Assembly (NCBI GenBank): GCA_008632985.1
Contig: QPGO01000016.1
Coordinates: 158,840 to 222,839 of the forward strand
Source: Psammoneis japonica
Lineage: Eukaryota
Direction of reading: 5' to 3'
DNA: 64,000 bases
This document shows, one piece after another, positions 4,854 through 63,549 of the stretch; the stretch's first letter is position 1; every line of letters starts with the position of its first letter. The notes beneath the pieces are model-generated. The model had not been told where the DNA came from. It saw only the letters and a program-made list of their open reading frames with translations, and did no database searches. A program made the position numbers and the translations under genes.

Positions 4854-7585
4854 GGCGACGAGAAGTGAATAAGGTCGACGAGAAGTGAATAGAAGTAATA
4901 AGGTCGTGTTCACAGATGCTGATTTCTGATTTTATGGAGAGCGGTGAGATCTTGGTGAGATCGCGACGACTGACCCCCTTTGTTTTTGCCTTTTCTGGAT
5001 TCTTTTTCAGCATATGATTGCAAAAAGTGTAAAAATAAAGCATGATTTGATTTCTGTATTTATGCGGCGATTCTGGAAAAATCTTGAAACAACACGACAA
5101 TGGCCGAAATGCCGTTCATTCTCGAAAATTGAACATCGAGGCTGGCAAATTTCATCATAAGGCCTAAGTTCATTGTTCATATCAAAATCGATAAACTTAC
5201 GACGAAATTTTCCAGCCCCCATGTTCAGTTTTCGAGAATGAACGGCATTTCGGCCATTGTCGGCGTTGTTTGCACGATGATGCGCAGAACTCGCGGACAA
5301 GCCGTTTGTGATCTTTTCAATAAATCTTGTTAATTTTGCAAAACAAATTCTAAAATACTCCAAAAATGGCGAAAACAAGAGGGATAGTGGGAAAATCAAA
5401 TTTCCGCCTGTCCTACGTGGGGAGGAGGAACAATGGAATCTGAATATTCTACTCAACCGGTTGAATGGAATATTTGTTGTGCCAGACGATTTCGTAGCTT
5501 CTACGTGGGTCTTGAGTTAGAGGATGAAGCGTTGGAAGGAAGGCTGAAACTACTGGGTGCCAGGTGCCATCCGATTCTTTTTGTTTTGTTCTCGAGGCGG
5601 GAAGAGAATGATATTATCTGCAATGTTGGGTATGAATTAGAAGTACATTTTACACCGGAGGTATGTGAATAGCAGCGAACTTTTTTTCAGGATCGCCTCG
5701 CAGACCCCAAGACCCATATGTCGGTGGAAAGCTCTCGACGAGCTGAACAAGGTCAAATGCATGTTGTATCGGTCGGAGTGAGCGGAAAGCGAATGTTTGT
5801 CGTTGAAAATTTGGTATTTATTTAAGGAAAAATAACGGTTATATTCGCCTTTTTCTAATTGATTTTTGTATTATAACAAACATACTCGTATCATAAATTT
5901 GACATTTAATCCGGAGTTCCGAAATCTCATACAGGATTGTACACCACATAAATTACTTGTGGGACACCTTGTTTCTATGCTTTGCTCTTGCTCTACAGCT
6001 CTTACAACTGAAGACATCGAAAAAAGGCTTTCGTCAGTCGCTGCAACTGGGTGTGTTTTAGTGACTGATAAAAGCCGATTTTCGATGAGTGTTTTTGGTG
6101 TCGAGATTTTTCAATGGCAAGGGCAACTTCGCTGCCATTTGCATGCCTCCGGCATTGTCTTGCTGCAAGCTGTGTGGCAGGCACCGGCATGGATTGAAGC
6201 TGTGGACGACATCAGCGACAGAAAGTGCAACAAGAAAATGCATGGTTTTGCACACCACACCAACTCGACAATGACGACTGGACAGCAACTCCTTGTGTTG
6301 TCTAAAAGATGCAATGGAAAGGCCGCGCCGTGCTGTCCATCCTGGCAACGGGTCAACAAAGTGCGAGCAAAATCCTTGTTTCACGGGTCCTTCTCAGTGC
6401 TTTTCCTCCCGATGCGGTCATTCGCCGCAAGAACCTCGTGACCGCAGTTCGCGTGGTGGGTCTCAGTGGAGCATGCCTTGATCTCCTTCCGGAAGAAGCC
6501 AGTGATCACCAGTTTGACCACCGGATCACGGACCAAACGAATCCTTGAAGCAAGGTGGCCTGTGTCCGTGGGGTGGATGCAGAACAAGAAAGGATCTCTG
6601 AGGAAGTGAGCAAGCACCCATCACTTGCTTGTCTTGCACGGTCACACATTTGCAGAAGCACATGAACTCACGACACCTGGGGCATCGTCCCAATGAACAG
6701 AGAAATGCATGCACACCAGTGCAGCGAAAGCACACACGATTCAGAACAAACACAGAAAAACATGTGAAGCTGAAACCCACTGGCGTCGACCCAATTCCTT
6801 GCAGTTGCATCTCATGCATGGCAAATCACAGCAGCACCTGCAGCATCGATCGGAAAGCAGAGCACATTTGTCGATGATGAGCACACAACAGTTTGGCAGA
6901 GCGCACAGTGATGATGACACAATGTGCGATGTGCTGCAATCATCCAGGCATGCATCAACCGTACGTTGACCTGTCTGGTCTCTGCATTGGCTCCCATGCA
7001 ACGCCCCATTGCTCCATGCTGATTTGGCCGTGGCAGTGATGCAAACCAGCATTCATTTTTGGAACATTTGAAGCTGGCACGTGCAATTGCAAGTGTCCAG
7101 ATGGCCGTTGTTTAAGACAAATTTGTTCTCATTCACACAAGACAGACCTCGACATGCACAGGGATGGAGCACATGGTTTGCTCCCATTTGCGCTCTTGCA
7201 GGGATCAACAACCTTTCACAAACAGCGTTAAATCTCACCACGACACAACGCACATTCGCTCATGCAAAGCATGCGCACAGCAGGTTGGCACCAACAGTGA
7301 GCAACACAAAATGATCATGGCTGGTGCAGATTGGACAAAAGAGTTCAATGTTTCAATGTTCAGATGCCAATGAAGCTGCTCTCTCTAGAGAGAGAGCGTG
7401 CCGCTAGCTTGAACAGCAGTGCACCTTTTGACAATGTCACTCGTTTGAACAGAAGCAGCTTCGTCAGTCCTCCAATCTAAAGTGAATCTTGCATTTCAAA
7501 AGTGCATTTCGATGCGTGTCACTTGTCGCTCTGCGGGAAGGATTGAGGACAGTGGCAATGACATGCCAGTTGAGATCTTTCTGCT

Positions 7586-9237
7586 TCATTTTTCTTGTGA
7601 CGCTTTACCCGCATTTGTCGACAGTGACATCGCGGCAGTTGCAGTTTGAGCTTTGCTTGTCGACAAAGCTGGTTTGGCTGTTGATTCTTTCGTGATGGTC
7701 GGCGTGACGTTGTCAGCAGTCTTGGTGCTTGAATCTCTTGCTTGGGTTCCCGCATCCTCGGCAATCGACAACTGCTTTTCCTTGTCTGTGGATGCAGATT
7801 GCGCACTTGCATCCTCAGGCGTTGAAGACGCACTGGCGCTCTCAGCAGCACCGGCTCCTTCCTTTGAGGCCTCCTTGGGACGGCTTTTTCCGGTGGTTTT
7901 GGGTTTTCTTTTTGTGGCCTTGACTGCCTTTGAACCTGGCGCCGCTGTTTTAGAGCGGTCTTGTTCCACAGCTGCAACATCAGTGTGCGCGCACTTGAGA
8001 CCCGCGACAAACACTGGATCCTGCACAACTTCTGGGCACTTGAGCAACATTTGCTTCAGCTCCTCCCATGCTTGGACTTTCGTTTCTGCCATGAGAGCCT
8101 TGTGCAAAATGGCAATGCGTTTGTTGGTGTGTTCTTCTTCGACTGGTGCTCTCTCTAAATTGGGCAAAACTTGTGTTGGAAGAATTGCGTCGGCGCGGGG
8201 CATTCCATCCAACATGCAATGCAATCTAGCAGGTTCTTTTGGTTGAGGCTGTCCCGGTGTCGGGCTCTTGATTGTCACTTGCACCACACCCGATGCCACC
8301 AAAACATCAACAATTTGTTGCAACACATTGGGTCCCAGCACAACATGCCCACCACGTGGCATGCAAGACTCTCGAGATGATTGAAGTGGTGGGAGATTGC
8401 ACTCCAGTTGCTCAAGAGAAAGCGGCCCGTCTGCAAAAGAAAATGGAAGGAAGAGCAAAATTAAGGTGGGCTTCGTGTGTGGAATTGTTGATCGACAACA
8501 CAAGTCAACTTGCACGTTTGCAGCAGGGACATTGTGCAATGCGACGTTTGCACTGCAACTGGGTCTGCAAGGGGCATGTGCGGTGTCACAGGAACAGCAG
8601 CACGTGACGCATTGCTGCTCGTGTCAGCTGCGACTTTGCACTTCTTGCTCGTGGGTTCAAGAGGCGGAGTCGTCGTGTTTGCATGCTTCTTGTCACTGAT
8701 TCCTTGACTTGCCCCTTTCTTGGCTTCTACGTCGCTTTTGTTTACGCTGGGTTTTGATGCAGTTGACGATGCTGGTGCAGTTGCTGCTTTCTGAGACACA
8801 GTTGGAGTCGTCTTGTCAGCGGTCGACACACTGGACTTCTCGAGAGGCTTTGCACTGCTTGCAGCAGCAGGTTTCAGCGCAGAAGACGACGAATGCTTGG
8901 TCACATCAACTTCAGCTGCAGCCGGAGCTGTGGTGAGGGACTCGTCATTTTGGCTGACCTCGAGTGCCGACTTCGCCTGGGGCAAGTTTGGGTTTTTGTC
9001 TTTCATGGATTCAGAGACGCTTGAGATGTTCTTTTTCTCATCTGAAACAGAAGGAGTCTTCATTGTGGAATTGACAGCAGGATTGCCATTGGCAGAACAA
9101 GAGGCAGAGGCTGCTGGCCCGGTCGTCATGGTCAATCTTCGATTGTGCAGTGTGCACTTGAAACTGCCACTGCGCTGTGTCGCGCACCAATCCACCATGG
9201 TTGACGGTTGACGGTCGATCGTCATGATCTCCCACAC
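7586..9237 (-). pseudogene. Degenerate coding remnant, A/S/T/K-rich with a small globular segment; identity unknown
   Basis: Overlapping ORFs 7586-8539 and 8461-9237 with protein-like composition and no Tyr. No family motif recognised. Confidence 0.4.
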
Positions 9238-9999
9238 TCTGCTCTTTTCTTTTGTGGGCCTGGCTAGACCTGGAGCTGCCGGCTGGGGCCTGGCATGCTA
9301 ACAACGAGAAGCACACCCTCGCGCCAATCCAATCAATCCCATTGAAAGATCATTTTCACTTGTTTTAAAGATCACATCACAAAAATGGAAAAGCAGATTG
9401 AACGCTTCGCTGCTGGCCGGCCATTGTCTTCATCACCATGGCAAAAACAGAGTGATGGCTGGCAGCAACATCTGCTCAAAGCGAAAAACCTTTTGATCAA
9501 TGATGAGGGATGAGAAGCCATTTCTCACATCCTTCTTGTCCTTCTTGTGTTCAGAGGAAGGTGCCAAGACAGCTGGCTGGTTGGATCTTGTTTTCTCCTT
9601 GTCCCCTGCCAAAAAAGAATGAGGGTGATGTTGTTTGTTAAAGTGCTGAGTGCCACAGCAGAGTTGTTTGATGCAAAGAGCGCAAAAAACCTCTTCTTTT
9701 GACTCAGTTTTTATTCGGAATGGAGAACATGCACACACTGGGGAGGAAAGGTGCCCAAACATTTTTGCACAGCCACCCATTGGCAGCCCAGCACACCAGC
9801 CACAGTGATCAATGCAAGCAACCTGCTCAAGTCAAGGAAGAATTGGAAAACACCACGGGGAGGGAGCACCAGCGCCATGTGCCAGATTGTCAGCAACATG
9901 AAAGCTGTCCAGCAAAACAAAACCCAAAGTCCAATTTTAAGTGCTGCTGTGCTTCCACCCTGCAACTCCGGCAACAAGCTGGCCCACACTCCCAGTGCA

Positions 10000-12900
10000 C
10001 TGGGTGCAGCAGGAGCACACAACAATTGGCCAAGATCGGCATCACCCTCTGGTGATGCCGCTCCAAAGTGGCTTGCGATGGTGCACATGCCTCTGGCAGC
10101 CAGACGCCGGGCCTCTCGAATGCTCGACTCAAACATTGGTTTTGCCATGGCGAGCCAGTTCCGGAGTCTGTGGGTAGAATGGGTGAGATGTTCATCCACC
10201 AAAGGAAACAACTCTGCTTGATCCCGGGCCAAGCACTCATCTGCCCCAGAGCAGATCTCTTTAATCTCCACCTCTGCATCCCGTCGTTGCGAAGACTTTC
10301 TCGTCTCTGAATCGTGTCCGTGCACTGCATCATTGTGGGAGTCCCACAATTCCCGCCATTGGGACCACACGTAACTGCCAACAGTTGCCGCCCAGTCCAA
10401 TCTTTTGTCTTTATCGGATGGAGAACAATGCAAGCCAGAAGACCGCAAATGCAACGTTTGTGCCTCATTCCACCTGTGGGAGAAATGCCCGCTGAAAATG
10501 TGGTGCCAGCCGATGTCGTCTTGAGAGTGAAACAGCTCTGTGACACTGTGATGGACGTTGGTGGAACACAGCAACTCCTTGTTGAACCAGCCTTCCAAGG
10601 CATGCAACAACAGGTCTTGCATGGACGGGGAGGTGTGCATGTCATCACATTTCTTCCACAATCCTTGTGGGAACGTGCGCCGCCACGACACATTGTGGGC
10701 ACAACGCAGCATGTGATCTCTGTCTTCGAAGGGGTGTTGGCAGTGTGTGCAACAGTTGGGGCGTGCAGGATCATGTCTGTGGACAATCTTGTTTGTTGGC
10801 AGGAGATCCTGAACCAACTTCACGGTGCTCACCTTTCGTCGGATGTTGCAAGACATCAGTTTGGAGTGAACTTTCCAATCTATAGAGTCGCACACTGGGT
10901 CAGACCAACCGCACTTCTCCTGCATGTGTTGGATCAGAGCTGGGCTGGAAGCTTCATGGCGGAGGACGGATTTAAATTTCGAGTTCACCGAAGCCAACTG
11001 GACATTCAGCATTGCATTGCAATGGGGCATTCGGGGAGCCATTGAGGTGTCTCCAGTGTGTTGGCCCTGAAACACACCTGCCAACCCATCGGCTCTAACA
11101 TTCACTTTTGCTGGGAACGAGAGGGACTTGGATGGAGTGTTGTCATCCTGATGACTTTTAATCCACTTCATGTTTGCTGCGTTGCTTTCAAGATGGCAGT
11201 CACATTGGGCCTCCAAACTTGTTGGTGAAGCGAAGATTTCGTGGACAACGTCCCAATCCGGCGCCACCGTGTTGGCGACATGATTCCGACAATGAAAATC
11301 TTGTTGTCTTTGTGAATCATCAGCATCCAAAGGAAGCGGTGGAGGAGAATGAAAGTTGGCAACATTGCGCACCAGAGAGGAATTGTCACAACAGGCAACC
11401 ACACTGTGTGAAAGACAACAGTTGCAAAAATCCATCACCCGGATGAGAAAGCGGAGAACTGACAGCAATCTGCGTGCTTCTGCGCGACACGAGGACGGTC
11501 AAAATCCAAAAACACAGCCCTGCACAATCCACCAGAATCACTCCGTTAACCGCTGGCGTCCAGCCAAAGGTGCCATTAAAATGCAAGACGGAACCATCAC
11601 TCCCTGCTTCTGCACGGAAGCACCCAAGGGACTCCGCTGTTTCAAATGCCGACACATGCATGTGAAGTGCACTGAACAGGGTTGACTCCCACAACGACAA
11701 GGACTGCAGCCATTTGCAAAAGTCCCCAAGGACAGGAATTGTTTGAGGCAACTTCACTGGGGATGCCAGGGATCGTGCGTGCCATCTGCCATCTGGTGTC
11801 GTGTCCACCATGACAGGTGATGCCAATGGGGATAGATCGGGAACTGTTTCCAACTGCTGAAGAGTTTCAGCACACTGTCCTTGACTGGAAACACTTGAAA
11901 ACCCACATCAGAGCGGACATGCAAAAACTCTTCGGAAGGCTCACAATGTGCCGGATGAAGCATGCGCATCATGGAGGCAGGAACGGTCCATTGACCCAAA
12001 GGGGTTCGGAGGGTGGAGGCACCTTCGTTGCACAACATTGTTTCCAGGCACAAGCAGACGGGCATGCCTGTTCAACTGGATTGAGTGACGACATGCCACT
12101 CATGAGGGAAGTTTGCCCTTTCAACTTGAACTCGTCTGAGTGTCGACCATCGGGAAGAGTGACGTCTGAAACAGCAAGTGCCCGTGGGAACAGCCTGCAA
12201 CAATTCACCCACCTGATCTCTTTTTCCGAGAAAAGTTTAGAATCCAGCACCACATCCATGGCACATTGATCATTCTTTCGTTGTGTGGGAAGGACGCCCG
12301 TGAAGTCCAGTTCAAAGTGAGCGTCAATGCGGGCGAGAAAGGATCTCAGAGACACAAACCATTTGGACTCGGAGTGCAGCAGTTTTGTGTGGACGTCTTG
12401 CAGAAAACTTGACCCTGTTCCAAGCTGGAATTGCATCCACGCCACTGCAATGCGGGACAAAGCATGGGGTTGCCCAGTTCCACGCCAGTGTCTGAGGAAC
12501 TGCAAACATTGAGCGACACCCTGCTCCACATCAAGAGATTGGAATCCTCTGCCTCCCAAGGTGTGCGGTCCGAATAAAACATCCCGCTTGGTGTTGCGGT
12601 TGTGTCCGCACTTGGCAAATGTAGTTCGCACAGCCTTGCATTGAATCTCAAGTAATTCCTTCAGTTGAAAATGTGCACTTGGAAGGATGTGCATGGTTGA
12701 GGCCAAGCAGCACGCAAAGTGGTGAGTCCATGCCTCATGACGGCCCAATGGACACAACCGGAGAAACAGAGAAATGTCGTCGCTTTTTGTTTTTGGTGCT
12801 TTGCACTGAGTCTTCTGAGTGCCTGCAGGAGATTTGCAATGTCCCAGTGTCTTGTGAGAGGAGCAAGCGGAAAGTTGGGTGCTGGATCTTTTGGTGGATC

Positions 12901-15900
12901 TGTCAGCGGAGTGAATTTCAATGTCGATCTCGTCATTGTACGCCCGAAGGTGTGGCTCTCCATCAGCAGTAAAATGCCATTCAATGGCATGAAATGAGCA
13001 CTTTGGGAGCTCCAGCTCATGTCCTGCCGCATCCAAGAGGTCGCACCACAGCTGATCATCTTGCTGCATTTTAGGAACTGGGTCCAGCGCATCTGGTTGT
13101 GGGTCAGCACAGAAGGTGTTCACTTGATTCAAAGTGTCATCAACACACCCTCTGGCACACATCCGCATTGAAGCTGTCCTGTCGGGAGTTTCAAAGTGAG
13201 CCCCATGAGCTTGGCTGTCAAATGGCCAAAACAAGCTGTTGCAAATTTGATTCCAATAAAAGGGAGAATTTCCGCTGCCCTGGCCAGTGCCACAGACAGG
13301 GAACTCATCCGAATGGGAGTGAGATGAAGTTGAGAGACCAAGAACTGTCTTTAACCAGCATCTTGCGTCATGTAAAGCAGCGTTCGCCGTCTGAGTTGCT
13401 GATTTGGGCAGCATGCCGTTGCTGCGGCTTTCGAGTGCTGTTAAAGCAGGAATGTTGCGATCACAACATGAGGCACAATCTCCATCACTGTGAATTGCTG
13501 TTTTCCGGGAAACTCTGCTGATCTCGAGCATCAGTTCCTCAAGGCACACCGGAGCATGAGCATTCAAAAAGGGACGCGTCCCGCAGATGCCTGGATTGCA
13601 CAGACGACGGTGTTCCATGTTCTGCGCCAAGACTCTCCATTTCACGCTGGACGTCAATTGAAAATCTGCCTCGCAGACATGGATGACTCGGAGACAATGT
13701 GTCTTGTTGTTTCCCGGCTCTTTGAAAATCATGACGTTGACAATGTCCTTCCACCTGTTGAACGAGCACCCCCAACGTAGAGCACAGTTTAACAAATTCA
13801 AGCGAGTCCCAATCAGCCGCTGTTGAATGTCATTCAAATGCTGACACTCGGACGTGAGATCGCCTTTGGGGGTGGTGGAGCTTGAACAAGAATGAGCTGC
13901 GCCATTGCTTTCCAGTGTCCCAAATGAAGGCCCGAGAACATAGAAGTGGATGCAGTTTCCTTCCACACCTTGAGTTTCCCTTTAAGATCCGATTCAGTCA
14001 GGAAGTCAGACACCAACGCTGGTGACCGTCATCGAAGATGTTGAACGAAGAGAGCAGTGGCGCTGTTGAGAGAGGAAGTGTCACATTCTCCGTCTAAGAT
14101 CAGGTCAGCCACAACCGTGTCACCTTCGCACCCGAGATCCACGAACAGGGGAGGAACGGCAGGAGGTGCGCCATGTGCTTGTCCAAAGTGTCGCTGATTC
14201 CGAGAACACAATGCTGCTGAAACGTCGTCTGGGATGTCAGTCGTGATCCAATCTTTGCACTCTTTAGGACTGGCAGCCGGGTTGCGAGGGACCTGCATGC
14301 CATTGACTCCTGCACCATGTTTTGCTTTGCACACGTTGATCTTGCAAAACAACCGGGCGGTTTCTTCTGACTTCTGCACGTTCCGAATGATTTTAGCTGA
14401 TTTGCGGGCGGCCGCTGTCCCATCTAGGTCCAATTTGGCAAGCTTCTCTGCCAGTTCCCGTTCACGTTGCTCGATGCTCTCCTTTGCAACTGCCTTGCAT
14501 TCGGCCTGTGCCTTGCGCAAGGCAACCTGACATTCATGAAATGTCATTGGAATGGAGAATGAGCCCATCAGCTTTGAACGCACCTGCTGGATCTGGGCGA
14601 CGTGATCAAAACGGTTCCTCATCATGGAAAGAACACAAGTGAGGATGTGTGCTCTGCAGCGGAGATCTGCCAACTTGACCGACCAGTCGGGTTCACGGTG
14701 GGATCGACACTTTTTCGCGGATGCTGGGGAGAACTGAAGAAGATCTTGGTCCAAGCGTTTGGCCAATTCGTGATTCAGAGCATCAGACTCTGTCAGCTGG
14801 GTGGATCGTTCCAAGACAGAACGGCTCTCAAGCATGGGACCAATGGCGGTTGAGTGCAAGGTGACCTGGGGTTTGGATGAAGCCAGATCGACGGTGGGAT
14901 TCCCGAACAGTTCCATCGTGTCAAAGTCTACAAAATGTGCCCGATGATCTGACGTGACACGGCATCCAAATGCTTCACATCTGCCTGGGCGAGCCGCAGA
15001 CAAAGCTCCTGGAGATGCTAGAACATGGCCCAGTCTTTTGGAGCCTCTTGTGCATGTTGAAAATTCGGAAACACCAAGGATTTGGAACAGGACGTCGGAC
15101 AAATTGAATCGTTGGGCAAGTGTAGCTGGGGAGTCTGTGTCCAACGAGAAGTCCGCATTGAAGTCACCAAACAAGATCACTTCTTGGTCATTCTCCGCAC
15201 GAAACTCTTGGAGCGTGCGCGACAGGTCCGCACAGAAGGCTTTGCGGGGATCAGTGGAGTTGCGACCCTGTTGATGCAGCAAATGCAATTGTTGAGCGCA
15301 GGCTGTTGTCTTCCCTGGTTGTTTTTGGTTTTTAGCGCAGACTCTGTGGCATGATGCAAACATGACTTGTCGCCCATTGCGACCATCAAACACCTGAACA
15401 GACCACCGACCTAACGGATCATGCTCCTGGGAGCGGAGTCGGGCAGAGATGGAATTGCATGAGACAAGTGCAGCACCACCCGGTTTACATTGGGTAGAAA
15501 AGGGGGTGGAACTGCACGAAAACGTGCTTCGCCCGTGGAGGAGGGACTTCAAAATCGCAGACCGACACACAGAGAGCACATCGAACTGGGTGGCATCCAG
15601 ACACATTTCTGAAATGCCAACCACGTCCGCTTGAATTTCGTTGGCAATCTGACAACAACCGTTGAGATCCCCACCACACTTGTCAAACTTGCATCCATTG
15701 GCGTTGAAGGCACAGAGTCTAGTGTGGTGTGGCAGTTTCGACTGAAGTTCATGTCCAATTGATTCATTTGTCTTGAGGCAGGAAAAATCGATCCTGCGAT
15801 CTGCCGAAGGAGCACAGTGTCTGCCGTCCAGTGTGTGTTGCCATGCAGTCGAAGGTGCAGCTGAAGAAAGCTCGCTGTTCATGGTTGGGCCTCGCTCCTC

Positions 15901-16107
15901 CAAGGAGAAGACTGGGGCTTGTAGCGATGCAAAGGGAGTGAGGCAGTTTGAAAGGAGAACCTGCAATGTCGAGAGGTGCGGCGAAAAACGTGTGCCAACG
16001 TGTGGGACTCTTGAAGTGCAGAGGCAATGTCGGGAGGACGCCTGGTCTGTTGAGGGGGAGGAGGCGGCGAAGTCCAACCCCTCGCTAAAAATCCTTCTCT
16101 TTGTCAT
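10000..16107 (-). pseudogene. LINE ORF2: AP endonuclease, reverse transcriptase, RNase H, C-terminal CCHC finger; frameshifted and hypermutated
   Basis: APE: FNANG, GISE, ILFGDFNA, SDHR. RT: KEPGN, LRVIHVCEADF, SCCDR, GTGQGSGNSP, GCVDD. RNase H: GSDGSV, CCDNSSLV, WIKSHQD, NVRAD. Finger: CTHC..EDRDHMLRC. Confidence 0.9.
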
Positions 16108-17477
16108 GATGGTCGCCAGACCTTTCTGGTGTTTCGTTGTTGTTGGGACGTTTCCGTGCCATGCTCTGTGTGGGTTGGCCTGCCTGCAACAGTTGGACGA
16201 TCTGATTCATCTGTGACTGCAACCCAGACAGTTGTTGCGAGTGGCGGTCCTGTGTGGCCATCATGTCATTTGTGTGTTGAGTGGTGAACGTGTTGTTCAG
16301 TGCCTCCATGTCCCGAGAATGTTGTGCACGTGTCTCAGCGAGGGCTTTGTCGTGGTTCTCTTGCATTTGGCTCACAGTCTGTTGAACTTCTGCCAGCTGT
16401 GCTGTGGCAATTGACGAGCTGGCAGTCGACTGTGTTGCCTGTGCATGAGAGTGCGGGGAAGACGTCGCGCTGCGATGTCCAGGGATGCCACAGGAAGGTG
16501 GGGAGAACTGGGAGCAATGGGTGAAAATTTGAGGAGGCACTGCTGGCTCCTTGAGAAGTTCCTCGTCCAGGGTGACCTCTTCCTTCACGTCCACGTCCAG
16601 CAAGTGGTTTTGAAGCAGGTTGTGTCGAACCTGAAGCCTGATTGTCAGTCAGTGGAGAAACGTCCGAAAATGCAAGAGATTCGAGGCTGCGAATGCCAGC
16701 CGACACAACAGATTTGCTGGTGTCGGATGATTCTTCGAGAACGCCTGACACTTGAGGAGGTTCCGAAAATGGGGGAGATGGGTGAGATTCTTTCGAAATT
16801 GAAGGGATCAAATTCACAATGCACGTTGAAACAGTGGCACGGATGGTTTCGAAGTTCCAACGGTCCACAAGAATGTTGCATCTTCCATCAACAACCGTGG
16901 ATGGAAACATTCCCTTCACTCCAGTTGATGCTTTAAGGTGATTTTCGAAGTGGAACATCATGTCCAGGGCAGTGTTCAGCAATGGCACCACGAAGGCATC
17001 TTCATTGTGACAAGCTTGCGTCTTGACAGCGTTGCAAAATGCGAGAGGGGAGATGTGACGAGTTTTCGCCATCACGACATGAGTCGGGAGTTTGTTCGAA
17101 GCGCAGAGTGGGGCCTTGCCCACAGCGCGACATTCTTCGCGCAATGCTTCAATGGCAAAGGTGGCTGTTCGAAGCGGGGTGGCAAGTCCATCATTGTCGG
17201 CACAAATCGAAGCAGGTGCCAACCGAAATTGTGGCATTTTAGTGCGGAAGCTTCCAAGGTCACTGATGAATGATTTGGCAGCTTCGTCAACCGGAGCATG
17301 TTTGGTGGAAGTGGCAATGCAATGTGCTGGAGTGGCCGTGTCGATGTCAGACTCGTTCCAGAAATGACGTTTCACACCCATGTTGTTGGAGTCCAAAATG
17401 CTCTGGACATGTGGATGGGAACGCATTTCGCGCAGTGGAGTCTCAGTGAGCACACGGTGACATGGGCAATGAGTTGC

Positions 17478-17700
17478 CAAGCAAATCCAGCTGCCGAGTG
17501 GCTCAGCCACTCACAGCACTGGCATGATGACAACCCAACGATCCAAAGATGCTCTTGTGCCTGCCACAACTGCTCGCAACAAGTGAGCGCCATTGGAGGG
17601 AAAGACAACGCTTCCCTCCGACAACACGTCACAACGGTTGACTCAGCACCAGCCGTCACCAACAGCACTCTAACTAAATCCGATGCATCGGATTTCTTTC
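17478..17700 (-). repeat. 3' LTR of the Copia element
   Basis: Gap-free alignment to 24448-24670. Confidence 0.92.
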
Positions 17701-17870
17701 GGTCCCCTTGAAATGTTTCTAACAAGCCAAGGGCGTGCTTGACAGACACAATTCAACCAATGCAATCAACCACATTGACACTCCGTGCTGGCCATGGTGT
17801 AAACCCTCACTGGGGAAGAAAATCACCACCGACCCGATTCCCAAAAATCCAAACCCCATTTGCCGCCAAT

Positions 17871-20800
17871 TCAACAAGTGAACTTGTCCAACAGGAAATT
17901 GCGACGAATCGAAGTCATGACCTTCGTGAACAAATCCGCGAGGTTAGTTTCCGCATCCTCCTTTGCCAAGCGAACAGTCCCCGCAGCAACAGCTTCCCCA
18001 TTGCGATGGCATGCAATGGAATGATGCTTCTTCTTGAGAGCAGACTCCGGGATGGAGCAATTCTTGTGCACTGCTTCATTGTCACAGAACACGTTCGTAG
18101 AACCTTCAACAGGAACTCCAAACATTCGAAGCTTGCACCTCAGACCTTCAACAAGTTCCACCGCGACCTTGAGTGCCACGATCTCGGCGCCAAAAGCACC
18201 AGTCTCCGCAGTGTTCTGTCTCTTCGAATGCCAGATTGTGGGTGCTTGGCACAGGAACATCAGAGCACCTGTGTGACTGCGGTGAGTTGAAACGTCACCA
18301 GCATGGTTGGCATCCACGAAACAATGAGTGGACACAACGTTGCCTCGAGGTGGTGGCATGTTGGGGGGAATCGCATCTTGCGCGTCTCGGCAGAAGTCGA
18401 ACCAATCGCACTCATTGAACCTAGACTCGTCGATGACCGGATGCGCAGGATCGAACGCCACCCGACGCTTTGGGACCTGTTTGAGGCATGCAAAGACATG
18501 CAATGCCTGTTCCAAGTGACCAATGCGCGGCAAGGCAAGGTGAGCCGACATGTTTGACACTTCCAAAATGACATCGACCCTGCCCAATTCCACGGCCCAA
18601 ATCAAAACGCCAATCAGCTCTTGGCAGCAGTTGAGGCCTTCTGCATCCAGTTCGCCCGAAGCATCCAACTCCGGCTTGCATCCGCTGCTCAAAGGTGTGC
18701 ATGCTTTGCTCGGCAGCCGTTTTCCTTCCTTGGCCAATTTGTCCTCAACGTTCCGGACCGCCGCCTTGCAGTGTTCTTCTGCTGACATCGTCCAGCAGGC
18801 AGTGCCGTCAGCAAGGTCCATCTTCGACAATTTGGTGCCCAAGTGGGATTCGGGTTCCACTGCTTTATCGTCTTTGAGCTTGAACTTCGACTTGATGCCA
18901 TCCACAGTCTTCATCGGCTCATGACTGATCGACAGCAAGTCGTTGACGCACACCAAGATGTGCCCGCAGTGCTCGAATCCGTCTGGCTTCACTGCAGGCC
19001 TCATCCAAACGTCGGGATCAGCCTTGCCAGGCTTGTGTCCTAGATCATAAAGCGTCTCCACCAGGAAGGCCCTGAATGCCGCGCCGGAGCTCTTCAATCC
19101 GTAGAGTGCCCTGACTGCAATCATAATCTCACCACGTTCCGTGCCAAACTCTTCACCGGCACGAGTCCAAATTTTCTCTCGGCACGGCGCTGTCAAGCAG
19201 GCATTCTGGATGTCGCAGGCAAAGACTTGCAAGTCATTGGGCGCTGCAAGTGTAAGAGCAATCCTCACCGAATCCCTGGAAACAACTGAGGAGCAGGTGA
19301 TGGCAGTTGGGGTGTCGGTCATGTGACCACCCGCAACCATCCTGCTCTTGTGCCGAAAGTTCTCTCCCAACTTGATGTCAAAAATCATGTGACAGTCGAT
19401 TTGTTGGCACCCAGGAGGCAGTTCCGTTTCGTCCCCCTCGAACTTGTCGAACGCAACTCAAACATTCTTCATTTTTTTGCCACAAGGTGTTGCCGTTCGC
19501 ACGATCGAGCTCCAGTGCCTCCTTCACAGTCTTGGGAATTCGTGTGCCAAATTTGTGGGTTCTCAACCAATGCTTCGACTTAACCTTCGCAATGGAACGC
19601 TTGCGGGTCCTCATTGTGTGCGGAGCCCACCAAGCAAACGCCGGCTCCTTTGAGATCTTGCGTTGGATGGCGAACTCGGCGACCTGGACAGGGAATCCTT
19701 CCTTCGCGTCCTTCAGGTCAACCCAAGCAGTGCTGCCATCCTTCCATTGGAACAAGAGTTCCCATCCTTTCGTGGTCCTGCGTCGCCTCTTGTTGCCTTG
19801 CTCAGTTTCAAAGAAATCGGATTCCGGGACGTCCCCATTCGTGCGGAAGTCCACAATCTCGTCGAACAGAACATGCCGATTTCCGTCCTCGTCAATCTGT
19901 GCGAACATGTTCATGGCAACAGAGTTAGCTGAGAGTGCTGCAGTGTGACCATCGGGACACTCTGCCTGACACATTCGAGCATCTAGGATTGGGTTGTCGT
20001 TGGCTGTCCCAATGGGAATGCCACTCGCATCCCTCAACCTCTTCGTCACGTGCGCGAACTCGGGACAATCATCATCTCTCGGCAAAGCCAATTCCACATT
20101 GAGACAACCCCAATCCACCGCTTCCGGGGAGGCTTCCTTGTCTTTCTTGTCATCGTCCTTGTTTGACACATCTTCAGAACTGATGACGCGATCGCACTCG
20201 TCGAGGAATTCATCGTCATACCCAAGACAGTCCTTCCAGTCTTCGGGGCTGATCCTGCGCTCTTTGTCTTTGGGAAAATCTTGGTCACGAAGTCTGTGCT
20301 GGATCTCCTCGTCAAAAGCCTTGAACCAATCTTGATTCTCTTGAGTGCCAGCTTCCAAGTTGGTGACTCGCTGAACAGATGTCCGCGATGTGACANNNNN
20401 NNNNNNNNNNNNNNNNNNNNNNNNNNNNNNNNNNNNNNNNNNNNNNNNNNNNNNNNNNNNNNNNNNNNNNNNNNNNNNNNNNNNNNNNNNNNNNNNNNNN
20501 NNNNNNNNNNNNNNNNNNNNNNNNNNNNNNNNNNNNNNNNNNNNNNNNNNNNNNNNNNNNNNNNNNNNNNNNNNNNNNNNNNNNNNNNNNNNNNNNNNNN
20601 NNNNNNNNNNNNNNNNNNNNNNNNNNNNNNNNNNNNNNNNNNNNNNNNNNNNNNNNNNNNNNNNNNNNNNNNNNNNNNNNNNNNNNNNNNNNNNNNNNNN
20701 NNNNNNNNNNNNNNNNNNNNNNNNNNNNNNNNNNNNNNNNNNNNNNNNNNNNNNNNNNNNNNNNNNNNNNNNNNNNNNNNNNNNNNNNNNNNNNNNNNNN

Positions 20801-21945
20801 NNNNNNNNNNNNNNNNNNNNNNNNNNNNNNNNNNNNNNNNNNNNNNNNNNNNNNNNNNNNNNNNNNNNNNNNNNNNNNNNNNNNNNNNNNNNNNNNNNNN
20901 NNNNNNNNNNNNNNNNNNNNNNNNNNNNNNNNNNNNNNNNNNNNNNNNNNNNNNNNNNNNNNNNNNNNNNNNNNNNNNNNNNNNCCACTTTGCCGTCGAC
21001 CGCATCAGTCGCCCACTCGCCTCGAAGTTTCGGCTTCGTGAACATCCGATCCGCTCGACAACGCCTGGCCAGGGGCACAAGCGCCGATCTCACTAGCTTC
21101 TGGGTGGTCTTCTTCAATGTTGATGCCGCTTGTTTCAATCCAATGCCCCAGCGCTCGCTCAAGTCAACAGCGGTGACAGAACTGTGCCATTCCTTGGACA
21201 TGAAAGTCTTCGGGGATGGTGTGTCTTCGAGTTCCGAGCCGATTGTCTCAGTGGCCGCGATCTGAACATCCGCTTCCACCTGGACCAATGCTGTCAATCT
21301 TGATTGAACTTGGTCCACACCGCAGACAAGTCTCCCATCACAACAGTCCCCAGACTGAGGGTTGCTGCAATCAGGATCCTGACTGAACGCGCAGCTGGGG
21401 CTTGACCGAACACTTGCGACCGACCAAATCAACTCCATTTCCTCCTCCACAGAACGTCGAGGTCTGGGCTGCTTAAACTTGATGTTGTGTGGATCCCAAG
21501 GTTGTTGGGAGGTCAGCTGGATGTGTGGGCACTCTTGGAGCTCCCTGTCAGTGGGGGTCCGAGCAGCCGCAACGACACTGGCTCCCATCAACTCAAGAGG
21601 TAGCATGAATCCCTTGTCCTCCATAAGGACATGCAACGGTGACTCGGAACAGGGGTTGTCCTGAACCGTGATGCTGAAATGCCTCATCTGATTCGGGTTG
21701 AGGAGGGAATTCTCCATGGAATCTGCCATCCAAAGCCCCTCATGGAATGCCAGGATGCGCGTTGCTCCCGTCGCCGGTGAGGTCCACGCAGTGGCCACCG
21801 ATGCGATTGGGACACTCTTGATGGCTTCGTGTCCCTCGTTGTAAGGCGATGCGTCGCATTCTCTTCCAGTGCAACCCAAGAGGGTAAAGTTCGAACCAAA
21901 AACAGTGGTGTCAGCATGTGAGTCCAACTCTAGTCGTCCATGCTT
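17871..21945 (-). pseudogene. Copia pol (protease, integrase partly in the gap, RT, RNase H); hypermutated
   Basis: ELDSHADT protease motif, QWKDGSTAWVDLKD, MIFDIK, KSRMVAGGH, RALYGLKSSGAAF, ILVCVND, FVDANHAG, FCDNEAV, NLADLFTK. Confidence 0.95.
20396..20984. other. Assembly gap (589 N) in the integrase region
   Basis: Run of N. Confidence 1.
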
Positions 21946-22158
21946 TACCTGATCGTCTGTTCGGACGTGAGTGGCACGCGTGTTTGTCCGTGCCGCAGAG
22001 ACTCGTCATGTGGAAGCAGCAATTTCACAAATGCAACGACAGTCCCCATGAACCAACGTTTCTTTCGAACGATGCGGCTGGCCCCCGCCCCAATGAAGCA
22101 GCCACAATGCAAACTGGATGAGGCTACAAAGCAGGGTCCAGCTTGGGAGTCAGCTGTG

Positions 22159-24142
22159 TCACTGACGCTCCTGGCGTCCCCCAAATGCATCTCCGGCATT
22201 GTTGCCGCCTTGACCGCCAGTTCCTGCACCAACGTTTCCGGAATCGGTGCCGGCAGTGGTCTCCAAGGAAGAAATGGTGCGGTTCGCTTGCTCAAGCTGG
22301 GACGTCAGCTTCCGATTCTTCTTTTTAAGCGATCTGACGGATGCAGCGCGGCGCTTCGGGTTACCCGGCCTCTTCTTGAGTCCTAAACGCACATGCTCGT
22401 CCATGAGACGTGTTCCAGTCCCAGGTGACACACAAAACGACAATTCGATTTCGAATATAAATTATTTATCTATAAGTGTATGAAGCATTTTCATATAAAA
22501 TACTTAAGCGGATTGGCTTTTATAGGCGTCTAGAGTATGAATAATTATGAAGAATTAAATACTTTTTTGTGGGGTATCGATGTCCTCATGGGATATGCAT
22601 CATAAACTTCCTCAGTAGACTCAATACTGATTGTACGTCTGTACTCTTTATACGGAAATTTCTTTGTAAGTAGAAACTATACTGAAAAGCTTCGTAAAAA
22701 GATATATTTAGTTAACATCCAAATAACGGCAATAATTTCGTCGAAAATCATCCGTTGTGTTACGATTCGTTTATCGCAATGAAAAACATTGATGGCACAA
22801 TAACAATGATTTTGCAACACTCACACGAGTCTTGTCAGTGTTGCAAAACATTAGAATTTGAATAAATCTATACTTTTGGTGGTGAAAAACCGTTCGTAAG
22901 TCAGAGACCGCGCAAAAATCGCGCAAATGTCGTTTTTGTGCACGATTTGGGTCACGTGCGGCTGGAACACGTCATGACCTTCTTCTTGTCTTCCTTGCTC
23001 AATTGATGCCAATTTTTATGAAATCCGGTGTCAATGGACCCATCTTCTTTGTAAATGGAATCACCTTCCTTGCTGACGCCGGACGCAACAGAGGAAATCG
23101 CACGACGGCGCGCAACTGTTTCCGGGAGGGTGGCGACTTTAGTGGCAAGATGGTTGCACGCTGCAGTAAAACCAATCCCTCCTCCAAACTCATTCTGTGC
23201 CTTCAGGGTCTCTGCTGCGTTCTGCAACTGCTGGTGTTGCACCTTGTCGAACAGCAATCGCAGCTTCTGAGCCTCCGTCTTGGGTTCATCATTCTCTTCG
23301 AAAATGTCGAACATCTCCTGAAGCTTGTTCACGAATGTTTCGAACATCATGGAGCGTTCACTCCTGCAGTGCAGAGTGTTTTCCAAACGCTCAGCTTCCG
23401 AGATACGACGGGTGGCACCACCCTCGCCCTGACAGTGGTTCTCCAAAGATTCGCAGCAGAGACGACCGTTCTGGCTGTTGCGGTGCTCTTTGATCCACTG
23501 CTCGCTTGGGGTGCCTTTCGTGAACAAAACGATCAGCTGGCTGACGGCACGAGAATCAGCTTCGAAAGCTGGACCCTTGAGTGGAGCGCATGCAACCAAC
23601 TTCTGCACAAAAGTCTCATGCCCTTCAGGCTCGGGCTCCTCGTTCTCGCGCATGACATGAATCAACGGAATGCCGTCGACTCCCAGCATCGTGCCAAGCA
23701 TGTTCTTGAAAGCGGTGCTCCATTTTGCCCAGACCTTTTCGCTCTCCAAGAGTCCAGGGGATGCCTCACGAGCAATGGACTCGGATTGATCCCTCATCTG
23801 GCTGCGAATGTTGGCCCTCGACAATGCAGCAGACAGCGCATCGAGAAAACGCGCCTGATCCAAACCGTCGATGGTGGGATTTTCACCAACGCGTTGGAAG
23901 TCATGTGCCCAATGAACAAGGGACTTGAGGTGACGGGTGCGAGCCAATCCAAAGTGGAAACGCCCCTCAGCAGCAGTCCTCCTCGAGCAAGACTGCGCGA
24001 GCGCATCGATGTCTGATTCCCTCACATCGACAACATCGTCAAATGCAGCGACATCAGTCACAATCGCGTCACGCTGAGCAGGTGACTGGAAGCCGATCCA
24101 AGCAAGGGCCGTTTCCATCGGGTTCGGGGGGTTTGCCGCCAT
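22159..24142 (-). pseudogene. Copia gag, interrupted by MITE copy A
   Basis: ORF 22952-24142 (GVDGIPLIHVMR, APLKGPAFEAD, FTAACNHL) rejoins as KKKVM|DEHVRLGLKK and ends with the CoDi-type NAGDAFGGR motif. Confidence 0.88.
22407..22973. mobile_element. 567-bp MITE, copy A (interior retains TA)
   Basis: TIR GACGTGTTCCAG / CTGGAACACGTC (20 of 23 matched when extended); 4-bp TSD ATGA. Confidence 0.93.
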
Positions 24143-24447
24143 GGTGAAACTTGAGTCATTGTGGCATCACAAGACAAAGCAGTTGTGTTGGAAGCAGTGC
24201 ATCAAAACTTTGACGTTCACAAAATCGCGTTGACGACACGCGCAGGCCTTGAGAGTGCGGAGATGTGGCCTTGTCTCCCACTGCTTTGCGCATGCACTGA
24301 TGCGAAGGCATCACTCAACGGTGAACACCCTCAGGTCAGTCGGCATTCATCGTCAAAACTGTGCCATCATGACACAACCGTCACAATCACGTTGTTCATC
24401 GTTTTTCATCGCCAAACCGCGGAGTGCGGACTGTGGCTCTGACAAAG

Positions 24448-24670
24448 CAAGTGAATCCAGCTGCCGAGTGGCTCAGCTGCTCACAGCACTGGCATGACAA
24501 CAATCCAACAATCCAAAGATGCTCTCATGCCTGTTGCAACTGCTCGTAACAAGTGAGTGCCATTGGAGGGAAAGACAACGCTTCCCTCCGACAACACATC
24601 ACAACGGTTGACTCAGCACCAGCCGTTGCCAACAGTGCTCTAACTAAATCCGATGCATCGGATTTCTTTC
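24448..24670 (-). repeat. 5' LTR of the Copia element
   Basis: Gap-free alignment to 17478-17700. Confidence 0.92.
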
Positions 24671-24907
24671 GTTGCTGGGCATTTGTCACCGCCGCGATTC
24701 GTCGTGATGACAAAGTGTTGCTCGTGTTGGAGGGAAGTGATCCATTCTGCCACGTTGACATTTGCAATGCGATTGTTGTGGTTGTCAAGAATCTGAACGT
24801 CTTTGTGGCAGGCAAACAAAATTTGCTGCAGGACTTGCAAATGGGCGGTGGCAAGAGTCGTGGGCTTGCACAACGATTCTTCACCACGAGTTTCAAATCG
24901 GAGGGTG

Positions 24908-25473
24908 GACGTGTTCCAGTCCCAGGTGACACACAAAACGACAATCGATTTTGAACACAAATCATGCATCCATTAGTGCATGCAGCATTTTCATGTAAAA
25001 CACTTGAGCGGATTGGCTTTTGTGGGCGTCTGGAGCATCAACAATTGTGAAGAATTAAATGGTTTTTTGTGGGGTGTCAAATTCCTCATGGGATGTGCAT
25101 CATAAACTTCCTCAGTGGACTCAATGCTGATTGCACCACCGCACTCTTCATAAAGAAATTTCTTTGTAAGTGGAAAATGCACCAAAATGCATCGTAGAAA
25201 GATGTGCTTGTTTGACATCCAAACGACGGCAACAATTTCGCCGAAAATCATCCGCTGTGTTGCGATTTGTTTGTCGCGATGAAAAACATTGATGGCACAA
25301 TGACAATGATTTTGCAGCACTCACACGAGTCTTGCCAGTGTTGCAAAACATTAGAATTTGGACAAATCTACACTTTTGGTGGTGAAAAACCGTTCGCAAG
25401 TCAGAGACCGCGCAAAAATCGCGCAAATGTCGTTTTTGTGCACGATTTGGGTCACGTGCGGCTGGAACACGTC
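24908..25473. mobile_element. 566-bp MITE, copy B (TA-depleted), inserted in LINE ORF1
   Basis: Same TIRs as copy A; 4-bp TSD GGTG; colinear with copy A. Confidence 0.93.
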
Positions 25474-27419
25474 GGTGATTTCTTTGAACTTGCGCTCAGT
25501 TGGCTTGGAAGAAAGCTCAATGGAAGACTGGTCAACAGCAACATCGTCTGCCATGATGGCATCTTTGTTGCGAGTTGGGGTGGGGCTGCCATCAGCGACG
25601 GAAGAAGACGCCATGGTGGTTGGCTGTTCTGCGGGAAACCTGGCATCAAAATCACGCAGGCAATGTCAATGCGAGTGCGCGCAGAATTGTGAAAGCTGTC
25701 CAGCAAGAAGAGGGTTTGTTTGTGCAGCCCCATCTGGCAGATCCTCATGCAAAGCAAAACTGGGAATGAATCAAGGCATGTGGACCTGCCAACTCTCAAG
25801 CTCCACCCCATGGCTCTCCTCTAAAAATGGATCTCAAAAAAGGATGTGGACAAAAGAAATCATTCACTGTTGATGTTTTGTTGCTTTGATGAGATGGTTG
25901 AGCCAAGAAAGAAAAAAGGTGGCTGTCAATTGGATGCTCTGTGGCAGGCAAGAAGGGCTGATGGTCAGTGACAGGCTGGGGCATCAACACCTCTGTGTTT
26001 CACCACAACAAGCCAAGTCAATCATTGTGCAGCTTGACAAACAGTGAGTGTGAGGAAGCCTGTGGTCACCACATCTGACTCCACAAGAAGAAAAAAACAA
26101 AATGAGTTGTCAACTTTGTCCTGAGCCTGTGATCCATGGGTTGCGCAGTTTGCAACAAAACACCGCGGATCATGATCCAGAGGATGCAGGTGTTTCAGTT
26201 CCCATTTTGTGCAACAATGCAACAACTGCATGTGAGCTCACAAGAAGGGAGGACAACAATTGACAGAACTTGGTTTTTGGCAACTTTGCTGACTGAAGAA
26301 TCAATTTGTGGGTCCTCTGTCTCTCTGCTTGAGTCATGACAAGAAGACAGGGACCTCATCTCAGCAGGAATCATGTCATCAGATTGAATGCTGAGTTCCA
26401 CCATGGTCACTTCAGGTGCACAAGAGGGCTCTGAGAAGAAGGTCCTCAGGTTCAAAATGACACTGCACCACGAATGAGCAGATTTTGCAGCATGAACCCC
26501 CAGAATGTGATTTTGAATTGTTGATGGTGGCATGCTCTCACTGTGGAACAGCAATGGAACAATGTTCTGAATGATGCAATGTGGAAAAATTGAGAATCAA
26601 TTTGGCCAGCAGTCAATCATTTTCCAGCCAAAGAAATGACCAAGGCAGTTGCAAATTTGGAATGTTTTCTGTGACAAAATGAGGGTAATTTGTTGTCACT
26701 TCACTTGGCCAGCAAAAGTCATTGGGTGCAATTTTGTGCAAAGACCACTTGCAAATGAAGTGGTCAATCCCAAATGAACCCCGAGGACTTTTGTCCAACC
26801 AACCCATCCTGCAGTGGAAGGCTGTTGCTGGGTCAATGGTGAACAGCTGTCACTGAAATTTTCAGACGTCCAGCATCTCCAGATCACTGTTGCTGTTGCC
26901 ACAGGAAAAAATCATTGTGGCAGTCAAAATTCTTAGACAAATTGCATTCAAACAGATGAACCTCAGATTTTTTCCCTCTGAATTTTGTGGATGGCACAAG
27001 CAGGTCAATTGTTTCTCACTCCGCACCTGCTGCATTTTTGAACAGGCCTGCTTCTCCCCCAGAACAACTCCTCATGAGCAAACACAGCAGCAGCGAGAGC
27101 AAAATGAGAAAAGTGGAGGTGACCCCAGTGCTTCTGCACTGGAGGTGGAGGGGTCACCATGCCAGCATCATCATTTTGAAAGACACAGTGAATTTTTGCA
27201 TGAGATTTGGTCCAATCGCTCCAAGGGCCAAGGCAAGTCAAAAACACAATGTCAGCACTGTTTGTTGCATTCACCATTTGCCAAATGCATGTCTGCTGAA
27301 TCAAGCTCATGACGCACAAGTCACAGTTTGATTCATTGTGGCTCCAAAGTTGTTGCCAGCATGACTTGAATTGGAAAAACCCATCGGTTTGAAAAACACA
27401 CGCATGCAATCCAGACACA

Positions 27420-27830
27420 ACATGTGCACACATCAGTTTGGACAAACCACCCTTTTTGTAAAAAACAACACAGACCCCAATGCATGTGTGTGTGAAATTG
27501 GACAAACACACATCAGTTTGGACAAACCACCTGCAAAAAAATCATGTTCATCCCAGTGCACACACACACATGAGAAATTGGACAAACACACTTCGGTTTG
27601 GACAAACCACCCTGCAAACAAACAATCATGACACCAATGCACTCACACACAAGAAATTGGACAAACGCACATCAGCTTGGACAAACCATCCTGTTCACAA
27701 AAAACATGGAACCAAACAAACACATGCAAGAAATTGGACAAACATGCTGTGCAGCACATCAGTTTGGACAAACCACCCCGCAAATGAACAACATTTGTCC
27801 CAATGTGTGCACATGAGAAATTGGACAAAT
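27420..27830. repeat. Imperfect tandem array, ~75-85-bp unit (AAATTGGACAAAC...CAGTTTGGACAAACCACC)
   Basis: TTGGACAAA recurs about 10 times in alternating short/long spacing. Confidence 0.85.
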
Positions 27831-28341
27831 CTGCACAGTGCTCCGATGCATCTGCAGCACAGCATGTGGACTCTGCTGGCAGCCAGGGCTGCAGGTGGTG
27901 CAGGATGACTCTCTGTTCAAAAATCAAATGATCGTCGGGCCATCATCGCGATCGCGACACTCATGACTGTTGATGATGAGAGGTGGCGGAGGTTCCTTTT
28001 CACCGCGACGAATCATCTTTGCAAGCAAAACATGGACATGGATCCAAACCTGGATTTGTTGAACAGTCTGTTTGTTGGGGAAAACACAGAAGACGTTTGT
28101 CGTGCACTGCAAGCCGGCGCCGATTTGAACCATGCTGCATTTTGGGAAGATGACGGTGCTCCGTTTCAAGTCCTTTTTCATCTTGTTGGCGTTGTTCCAA
28201 CGCCAAGAAATGTCGATGCAAAATTGCAACTCTTGCTGGATGCTGGGGCACGCGTGAATTTTTGACATTCAAAATGTGGCTGGACCCCCTTGCTCCACTT
28301 GTGCCATCATGGGCGTGTGTCCACGGTTCGGATCCTTGTGT

Positions 28342-63248: not shown

Positions 63249-63549
63249 AAAAAACTTTTCGATTATCCCCTTGTGCAGCCTTTTCCGTTCAATGCGAATT
63301 TTTCGTAGCTTCGATGCAGCTTTGGGTGCAAAGAGCATTACTGTTCAATCCTCTGGACAAGGCAATCTCACCAACCTCACTTCAACCACGTGCCTAAACG
63401 CTGTTGGGTTGCATTTTTAATTCATTCACCAAAATTTGTTGTTCTATGCACTACACCAGCAATGTCTTTTCTACGAAAACGCAGAAAGCACGCCGTACCT
63501 TGCTGACAAGAAAATCTAAAACTGCATTGGTTTCAAGGATTTATTCTTT

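Follow-up and report, generated by a model that had tools for sequence, protein, structure and literature searches.

A 5'-TAY flank rule for A→G loss of TpA in transposon-rich DNA of the diatom Psammoneis japonica

Which base is altered, and in what sequence context, when TA dinucleotides are erased from repeat DNA? This question is raised by a 64,000-nucleotide stretch of Psammoneis japonica contig QPGO01000016.1 (positions 158,840 to 222,839 of the forward strand; hereafter the window, numbered from its first base). It contains a repeat domain with a dead non-LTR retroelement, here called LINE (long interspersed nuclear element), a dead copia long terminal repeat (LTR) retrotransposon, and two related miniature inverted-repeat transposable elements (MITEs), the unmutated MITE A and its mutated copy MITE B (Table 1). 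The observed/expected ratio (o/e) of TA is about 0.1 over 6001-22000 and 23001-33500, compared to 0.5-0.7 in the flanking DNA, and the borders of the domain are sharp, lying near 6005 and 33600. Across the TA-depleted domains of the window TA o/e is approximately 0.0-0.25 and that of TG and CA 1.4-2.0; GC content inside the repeat domain is slightly higher, with TA down about ten-fold. Around the host genes at 38100-40298 and 42903-44561 TA o/e is normal, mostly 0.3-0.9 per 500-base window. Both strands are altered about equally, and the changes extend to MITEs, LTRs and coding parts alike, which indicates that the process acts at the DNA level and on both strands. An earlier note on this DNA had claimed that the residual TAs lie mainly in YTAR (Y, pyrimidine; R, purine), the only context that is TAY on neither strand, and that the preferred target is the A of TAC and TAT.

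Surviving TAs were counted in 6005-25700 minus MITE A (18,535 non-N bases) and assigned to three classes, forming TAY on neither strand (YTAR), on one strand (mixed) or on both (RTAY). Among the 111 survivors 59 were YTAR (53%), 48 mixed and 4 RTAY, so that the word "mainly" holds in the sense of just over half; with MITE A counted, the numbers become 65/73/20 of 158 TAs and the YTAR share 41%. Unmutated DNA of the window (30,499 bases) contained 1254 TAs distributed as 186 YTAR, 671 mixed and 397 RTAY, which differs strongly from the survivors (chi2 112.8, 2 degrees of freedom (df), p = 3e-25; YTAR versus the rest, odds ratio 6.5, p = 9e-19). This context baseline is not peculiar to host genes, as both MITE A (6/25/16) and 80 related copia loci from metagenomes (396 kb; 3047/8424/6077, i.e. 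17/48/35%) match it. None of these copia loci exceeded 67% protein identity, and they serve as a baseline, not as ancestors; their TA o/e was 0.44-0.92, their contexts were normal and none was TA-erased.

Relative to unmutated DNA, YTAR sites survived at approximately 0.5, mixed sites at 0.11 and RTAY sites at 0.016. When resolved by tetramer, using a coarser exclusion of 22001-23000 with 107 TAs counted, survival ranged from 0.63 for TTAA, 0.48 for CTAA/TTAG and 0.47 for CTAG down to 0.03 for GTAC, 0.02 for ATAC/GTAT and 0 for ATAT. Equal survival over the NTAN contexts (N, any base), the opposite of what the earlier note proposed, was rejected for the ten strand-collapsed classes (deviance 118.8, 9 df). 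Other TA-poor domains behaved alike, with 13/23 survivors (25701-33500) and 11/14 survivors being YTAR. All seven words cited in that note as examples of survivors are present, five at the position given and two, GCTAGC (7403) and TTTTAG (7948), one base off; CTAACTAA is indeed kept in both LTRs, at 17670 and 24640.

Paralogous copies display the changes directly. At the 47 TA sites of MITE A, MITE B has 9 kept TAs, 20 TG, 17 CA, 1 CG and 1 TT; 37 of 38 changed sites had become TG or CA, plus one CG. Four of the six YTAR sites were changed in this pair, in agreement with the earlier caution that the preference is not absolute. Between the window and an unmutated paralogous contig, 15 differences were listed over 6159-6419. 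At 11 of them a TA of the contig corresponds to TG or CA in the window, and at one it corresponds to CG, a double hit. The two LTRs differ at seven sites that are TG in one and CA in the other; LTR1 carries mostly CA and LTR2 mostly TG, a tendency that is not significant and is ascertainment-biased. Many further paralogous copies exist, with 4141 pieces aligned to the window and transitions dominating the differing places; the 40 differences listed of approximately 3000 comprise 12 usable TA sites and do not amount to a site-level spectrum.

Survivor counts cannot choose the direction of change. Since TA is self-complementary, TAY→TGY and RTA→RTG both predict YTAR survivors, so that the step from survivors to target in the earlier note had a gap, which was closed by direction-resolved tests. 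For these, 120 homologues per element were mapped by tblastn, and codons with at least 40 aligned homologues and at least 60% agreement were taken as conserved, yielding 1456 codons. The homologues of the non-LTR element comprise about 2000 aa and include Fragilaria crotonensis proteins, and those of copia share 60-69% identity. At conserved A-initial codons of LINE and copia that are still preceded by T (the bar marks the codon boundary), first-base A→G substitutions were found in 14/16 T|AC and 12/14 T|AT, and in 1/8 T|AA and 3/4 T|AG. The pooled same-strand comparison of 26/30 T|AY versus 4/12 T|AR is significant (Fisher p = 0.0013) and immune to strand bias, because the contexts are compared on one strand. 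The same first-base substitutions without a preceding T were rare, 8 in total.

Only 2 of 63 conserved Tyr were kept, compared to 1075 of 1393 other conserved residues, which bears out the expectation that tyrosines are destroyed efficiently; the others had been replaced by Cys (34), His (14), Arg (1) and Phe or other residues (12). In the non-LTR element (n = 38) 19 Cys, 8 His and 1 Arg were counted and no Tyr remained, and in copia (n = 25) 15 Cys, 6 His, 2 Tyr and 2 Phe. That Tyr codons are lost first follows from the preference for TAT and TAC. Conserved Tyr was replaced at 61 of 63 positions, at 49 of these by Cys, His or Arg, which contradicts the idea that no mutation process took place and that the pattern stems from an oddity of base composition or from selection acting on the contexts of TA; this idea is likewise contradicted by the existence of unmutated copies (MITE A and the paralogous contig over 6160-6454) and by the 80 copia loci with their ordinary TA content and contexts, and we give it practically no weight.

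The direction of change was further assessed from several classes of events. Conserved Tyr codons in YTAY gave 19 TGY (Cys) to 6 CAY (His; p = 0.015), and those in RTAY 15 TG to 8 CA plus one double hit, compatible with 1:1. In strand-symmetrised tetramer counts of 6005-22000 plus 23001-25700 compared to unmutated DNA, YTAY decreased by 9.7/kb, YTGY increased by 7.5/kb and YCAY by 1.9/kb, with small changes in CG. Pooled direct events of the informative classes, YTAY and RTAR, were 35:16 in favour of TAY→TGY (69%, confidence interval 54-81%, p = 0.011). The unmutated paralogous contig contributed 4:2 in this sense, the single direction-informative site of the LTR pair 1:0, and Ile ATA codons a single RTAR event, also 1:0. 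V→A plus I→T replacements (10/119) compared to L→P plus L→S (5/170) also lean in the expected direction (p = 0.057), a tendency to which codon usage may contribute. Together with the same-strand codon test, the YTAY Tyr codons and the tetramer gains support the A of TAT and TAC as the preferred target.

Other observations weigh against an effect of the 3' base on the adenine of its own strand. The Cys:His ratio is similar in YTAY (19:6) and RTAY (15:8; p = 0.53), so that the Tyr data alone leave room for a general coding-strand bias. The pooled 69% lies below the 83% expected from the survival rates (p = 0.009), and the MITE pair is equivocal at 10:8 (YTAY 5 TG : 4 CA; RTAR 5 CA : 4 TG), with essentially no signal. 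In the strand-resolved balance of copia against the 80-element baseline, which covers a 3.5 kb region and relies on distant elements, YTAY fits and RTAR and RTAY do not balance. The MITE and Tyr ratios are what would be expected if an enzyme or repair complex read the double-stranded tetramer, RTAY best and YTAR worst, and altered a random strand, in which case the flank would not act in cis; a model that multiplies the effects of the two flanks would also give a rough fit to the three classes of survival. Such duplex recognition is rather unlikely in our judgement, as it conflicts with the same-strand codon test, with a gain of YTGY four times that of YCAY and with the pooled direction of 35:16. 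Our conclusion is that the base 3' of the mutated A exerts its effect mainly in cis, and that the opposite flank or local strand effects may contribute as well. A runs test for strand-coordinated patches provided weak evidence (p = 0.013 for copia, 0.68 for LINE).

An additive per-strand model described the ten NTAN classes well (deviance 3.1, 6 df, p = 0.79). Its rates by +1 base were 2.28 for T, 1.63 for C, 0.46 for G and 0.20 for A, giving the order TAT > TAC >> TAG > TAA, with TAT and TAC approximately 4-10 times faster than TAG and TAA. YTAR thus survives as a poor target on both strands and RTAY vanishes as a good target on both. The next base also matters: A at +2 was found in 143/288 survivor half-sites compared to 675/2508 in unmutated DNA, and survival by trinucleotide and next base was 0.43 for TAAA, 0.28 for TAGA, 0.02-0.05 for TATN, and 0.10 for TACG versus 0.02 for TACT. 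On the 5' side, A→G at codon position 2 affected 35/63 TAY codons, and only 1/49 AAY, 1/99 GAY and 1/43 CAY; T at -1 is nearly obligatory for the target A. The sparing of AA disfavours a scenario in which repair in methylated repeats sets off error-prone patch synthesis by a Pol eta-like polymerase, since the Pol eta signature is WA→WG (W, A or T) and would include AA. CpG decay in the same domains makes repair traffic plausible, and we nevertheless consider this explanation very unlikely.

Double hits, TA→CG, were rare, amounting to 1/37 changed MITE sites, 1/49 changed Tyr codons and 1/12 paralog sites, and RCGY shows no rise although RTAY drops by 12.8/kb. This disfavours a single saturating episode on both strands, after which most RTAY would be RCGY. 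In the mechanism that we propose, repeat DNA would undergo DNA-level A:T→G:C transitions limited to 5'-TpA-3'. The adenines of the two strands would be hit independently of each other, the bases 3' of each determining its rate, and A at +2 would protect further. The agent would be an adenine deaminase converting A to inosine, which is read as G. A first hit, TA→TG or TA→CA, would remove the T at -1 for the partner A, which would then read C-A and be immune, and this would explain why TA→CG is rare. Given this rarity, hits would most simply have accumulated singly over generations and not in one burst. On balance we lean slightly towards a single-strand-reading, T-A-Y-specific polynucleotide adenine deaminase that acts in many small steps on repeat chromatin and follows the flank rule. 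The flank rule itself, established as to contexts, direction, dependence on the -1 and +1 bases and rarity of double hits, is held with higher confidence than this whole statement.

TAY on one strand is RTA on the other, the A of the former being paired with the T of the latter, so that the sequence cannot separate adenine from thymine chemistry, and it is from a pattern common to both that we infer adenine deamination. The T of 5'-R-T-A-3' might instead be modified, for example by a TET/JBP-type enzyme that hydroxylates it to 5-hydroxymethyluracil (5hmU) in repeat chromatin, and then mispair or be misrepaired to give T→C. Such thymine-directed chemistry makes the same base-pair change as A→G in TAY, seen from the opposite strand, and hence yields an identical sequence pattern, which is a further point against the adenine deaminase. 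In the parts of PMC11572971 drawn on here, dinoflagellate 5hmU prefers the T of TA and TC, is enriched at repeats and is linked to transposon silencing; it is described there, in another lineage, as an epigenetic mark and is not reported as a mutator. In the diatom window TC is unaffected, TA being lost without TC depletion or CC gain: no TCN or CCN trinucleotide shifts by more than about 5/kb, and TCA and CCA, which shift most, are themselves products of TA. No report of 5hmU in a diatom was among the matches listed in a literature search on 5hmU. To our knowledge, 5hmU→C mutagenesis at such a rate has not been demonstrated, and modification of thymine appears an unlikely source of the pattern.

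Editing at the RNA level was considered as well. ADAR-like editing of retroelement transcripts, fixed via reverse transcription, would share with the present process A→G with U at -1, which is typical of ADAR hyperediting according to the cited part of PMC10661471. It is excluded as an explanation by the changes on both strands, the affected MITEs and the divergence of the LTRs after insertion (the seven TG-versus-CA sites). Moreover, ADAR uses double-stranded RNA and has the motif 5'UAG in that source, whereas DNA is altered here and the preference for G at +1 is absent, TAG being protected (0.46 versus 1.6-2.3 for TAY). We regard this route as extremely improbable.

For the adenine deaminase that we favour, the tRNA-editing enzymes invite comparison. 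TadA and ADAT2-3 naturally act on tRNA, and their target A is preceded by U (U33-A34). The earlier note saw in the context a reminder of the UAC preference of TadA-type deaminases. This resemblance holds for the T directly 5' of the target A and for C at +1, which is favoured (1.63); it is limited in that TAT is at least as good as TAC (2.28 versus 1.63) and in that TACG is not favoured (survival 0.10, compared to 0.02 for TACT). In eukaryotic anticodons with A34 the base at +1 is mostly a purine, the opposite of the +1 rule here. Published motifs, as given in the cited parts of the respective sources, are 5'ACG for bacterial TadA (PMC10661471), YAC for the ABE8e A48E variant (PMC13109818), and GAA for A and TCG for C in the case of amphioxus ADAT2 on DNA (PMC10354150). 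The resemblance to TadA is thus partial, and a TadA link may be taken as a lead only.

Among known systems, a close counterpart is the hypermutation at TpA that affects giant-virus and virophage DNA integrated in the chlorarachniophyte Bigelowiella natans (Mettrop et al., April 2026, bioRxiv 10.64898/2026.01.13.699255). As described in the preprint's main text, that process consists almost only of A→G/T→C at TpA giving TpG/CpA, is confined to foreign or repeat-like DNA, leaves TpA-poor, TpG/CpA-rich clusters, and has been ascribed to a proposed adenine deaminase. In Bigelowiella it has also been observed as new mutations in cultured lines, 231 of them in Table S2. In the window, too, nearly all changes are A→G/T→C at TpA, and repeat DNA is affected with neighbouring genes spared; the host, in contrast, is a diatom, and the targets are LINE, copia and MITE sequences instead of viral integrations. 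The main text of the preprint does not contain the words "context", "trinucleotide", "tetranucleotide" or "flanking" and hence no flank rule, while its supplementary mutation table may hold flanks. Literature searches for such a process in diatoms or transposable elements returned none in a diatom. The present analysis describes more sharply, in diatom transposons, a type of mutator that was recognised only recently and has so far scarcely been characterised; the flank rule is its new part.

Repeat-induced point mutation (RIP) in Neurospora and other ascomycetes is also repeat-directed, produces dinucleotide-specific transitions on both strands and leaves missense-riddled transposons. RIP, however, changes C to T at CpA and thereby makes TpA, operates in one premeiotic burst and enriches repeats in AT, whereas here TpA is destroyed by A→G, the ten-fold TA depletion is accompanied by slightly raised GC, and the rare double hits point to gradual accumulation. 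APOBEC3 (see PMC4866542) is likewise a deaminase that reads single strands, recognises a short flank and hypermutates the DNA of retroelements, but it converts C to U in TC/CC on one strand during reverse transcription.

The pattern could have been left by a natural adenine deaminase of DNA that recognises 5'-T-A-Y on single strands, disfavours A at +2 and works in small steps on diatom repeat chromatin, and that is of the same kind as the enzyme of Bigelowiella, which would make it an ancient, widespread eukaryotic genome-defence mutator mirroring RIP; we offer this wider view tentatively, as a possibility that falls somewhat short of an even chance. We know of no natural DNA adenine deaminase established beyond the reports on ADAT2, and TadA had to be evolved before adenine base editors were obtained. 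If true, a mutator that makes A→G changes in repeats would represent a type of genome defence not known before, working in the opposite sense to RIP. For finding the responsible enzyme the flank rule offers a concrete motif, predicting that oligonucleotides with TAT or TAC are preferred over those with TAG or TAA and that TAAA is the poorest substrate, and it provides a yardstick for whether the Bigelowiella and diatom processes are the same.

Table 1. Features of the window, with the observations on which each is based
Feature	Coordinates	Strand	Basis or remarks
TA-depleted repeat domain, first part	6005..22401	.	TA o/e ~0.1, TG/CA 1.4-2.0
TA-depleted domain, continuation past 25700	22974..33500	.	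TA o/e 0.00-0.27 per 500-base windows
Stretch with unmutated paralogous contig in run X2	6160..6454	.	Contig differences
Dead non-LTR retroelement (APE endonuclease + reverse transcriptase)	10065..15894	minus	Pfam Exo_endo_phos, homologues mapped by tblastn
Dead copia LTR retrotransposon	17478..24677	minus	RVT_2 match, homologues, LTR alignment
Copia LTRs	~17478-17707 and ~24448-24677		~230 bases each; LTR alignment
Copia coding part	22005-17877	minus	N gap at 20396-20984
MITE A, young unmutated insertion within copia	22402..22973	.	47 TAs in 572 bases
MITE B, mutated copy of MITE A	24908..25473	.	88% identity
TA- and CG-depleted island	47801..49000	.	Dinucleotide o/e, tetramer counts
TA- and CG-depleted island	58401..61000	.	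Dinucleotide o/e, tetramer counts
Start of further TA- and CG-depleted island, window end	63501..64000	.	Dinucleotide o/e

In the non-LTR element, the open reading frame (ORF) at 11969-13981 had no reverse transcriptase match in Pfam, and the reverse transcriptase was recognised by homology searches instead. The copia-free junction of 17478 with 24677 is present in three contigs, which indicates that the target DNA of copia is repeated elsewhere without it. In one contig of run X1, 22401 is directly followed by 22973 and MITE A is absent; either MITE A is a recent or polymorphic insertion, or else the mutator is episodic. Outside TA sites, the MITE pair (22407-22973 versus 24908-25473) shows 29 differences, of which 10 are A→G/T→C (e.g. 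in AAC, GAC and AAT), hinting at leaky activity in the absence of T at -1. Another run X1 contig, of 2251 bases over 6452-8701, has 18 differences from the window and may represent the second haplotype or a copy that arose very recently. Among the 8 differences shown, 7 are CG in the contig versus TG or CA in the window; as an anecdotal case, the contig has CA where the window keeps the CTAG survivor at 7404-7405 (T>C at 7405).

CG is almost gone (o/e 0.06-0.4) from 25501-27500, 48001-49000, 58501-61000 and 63501-64000, and is retained at o/e 0.5-0.9 in 6005-25000. TA erasure and CpG decay are accordingly two processes layered unequally. The CGs remaining in 47801-49000, 58401-61000 and 63501-64000 are skewed to RCGY, with 3.3/kb compared to 0.6/kb for YCGY/RCGR.

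Within the TA-erased domain, the ORFs 29791-30345 (plus strand) and 32448-32999 (minus strand) encode an ankyrin repeat and a CS domain and are possibly copies of host genes caught by the mutator. The mutated domain also contains, at 30674-31691, arrays of a 21-base unit that contains a palindrome (TTTGTCG...CGACAAA), with inverted arms of 65 bases on either side of the arrays, and about five tandem units of 80 bases occupy 27401-27830, which is poor in both TA and CG. Unmutated tandem repeats were found with a 93-base unit at 3590-4147 and with a 135-base unit at 56657-58078, the latter within the long ORF 55495-58050, which has no Pfam match. The named relatives of the host gene at 38100-40298 are all from diatoms, with 34-42% identity. 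A diverged gene pair, 45136-46481 and 61651-63004, shares 64% nucleotide identity and weak matches to DUF4832/DUF4874, and both members are unmutated.

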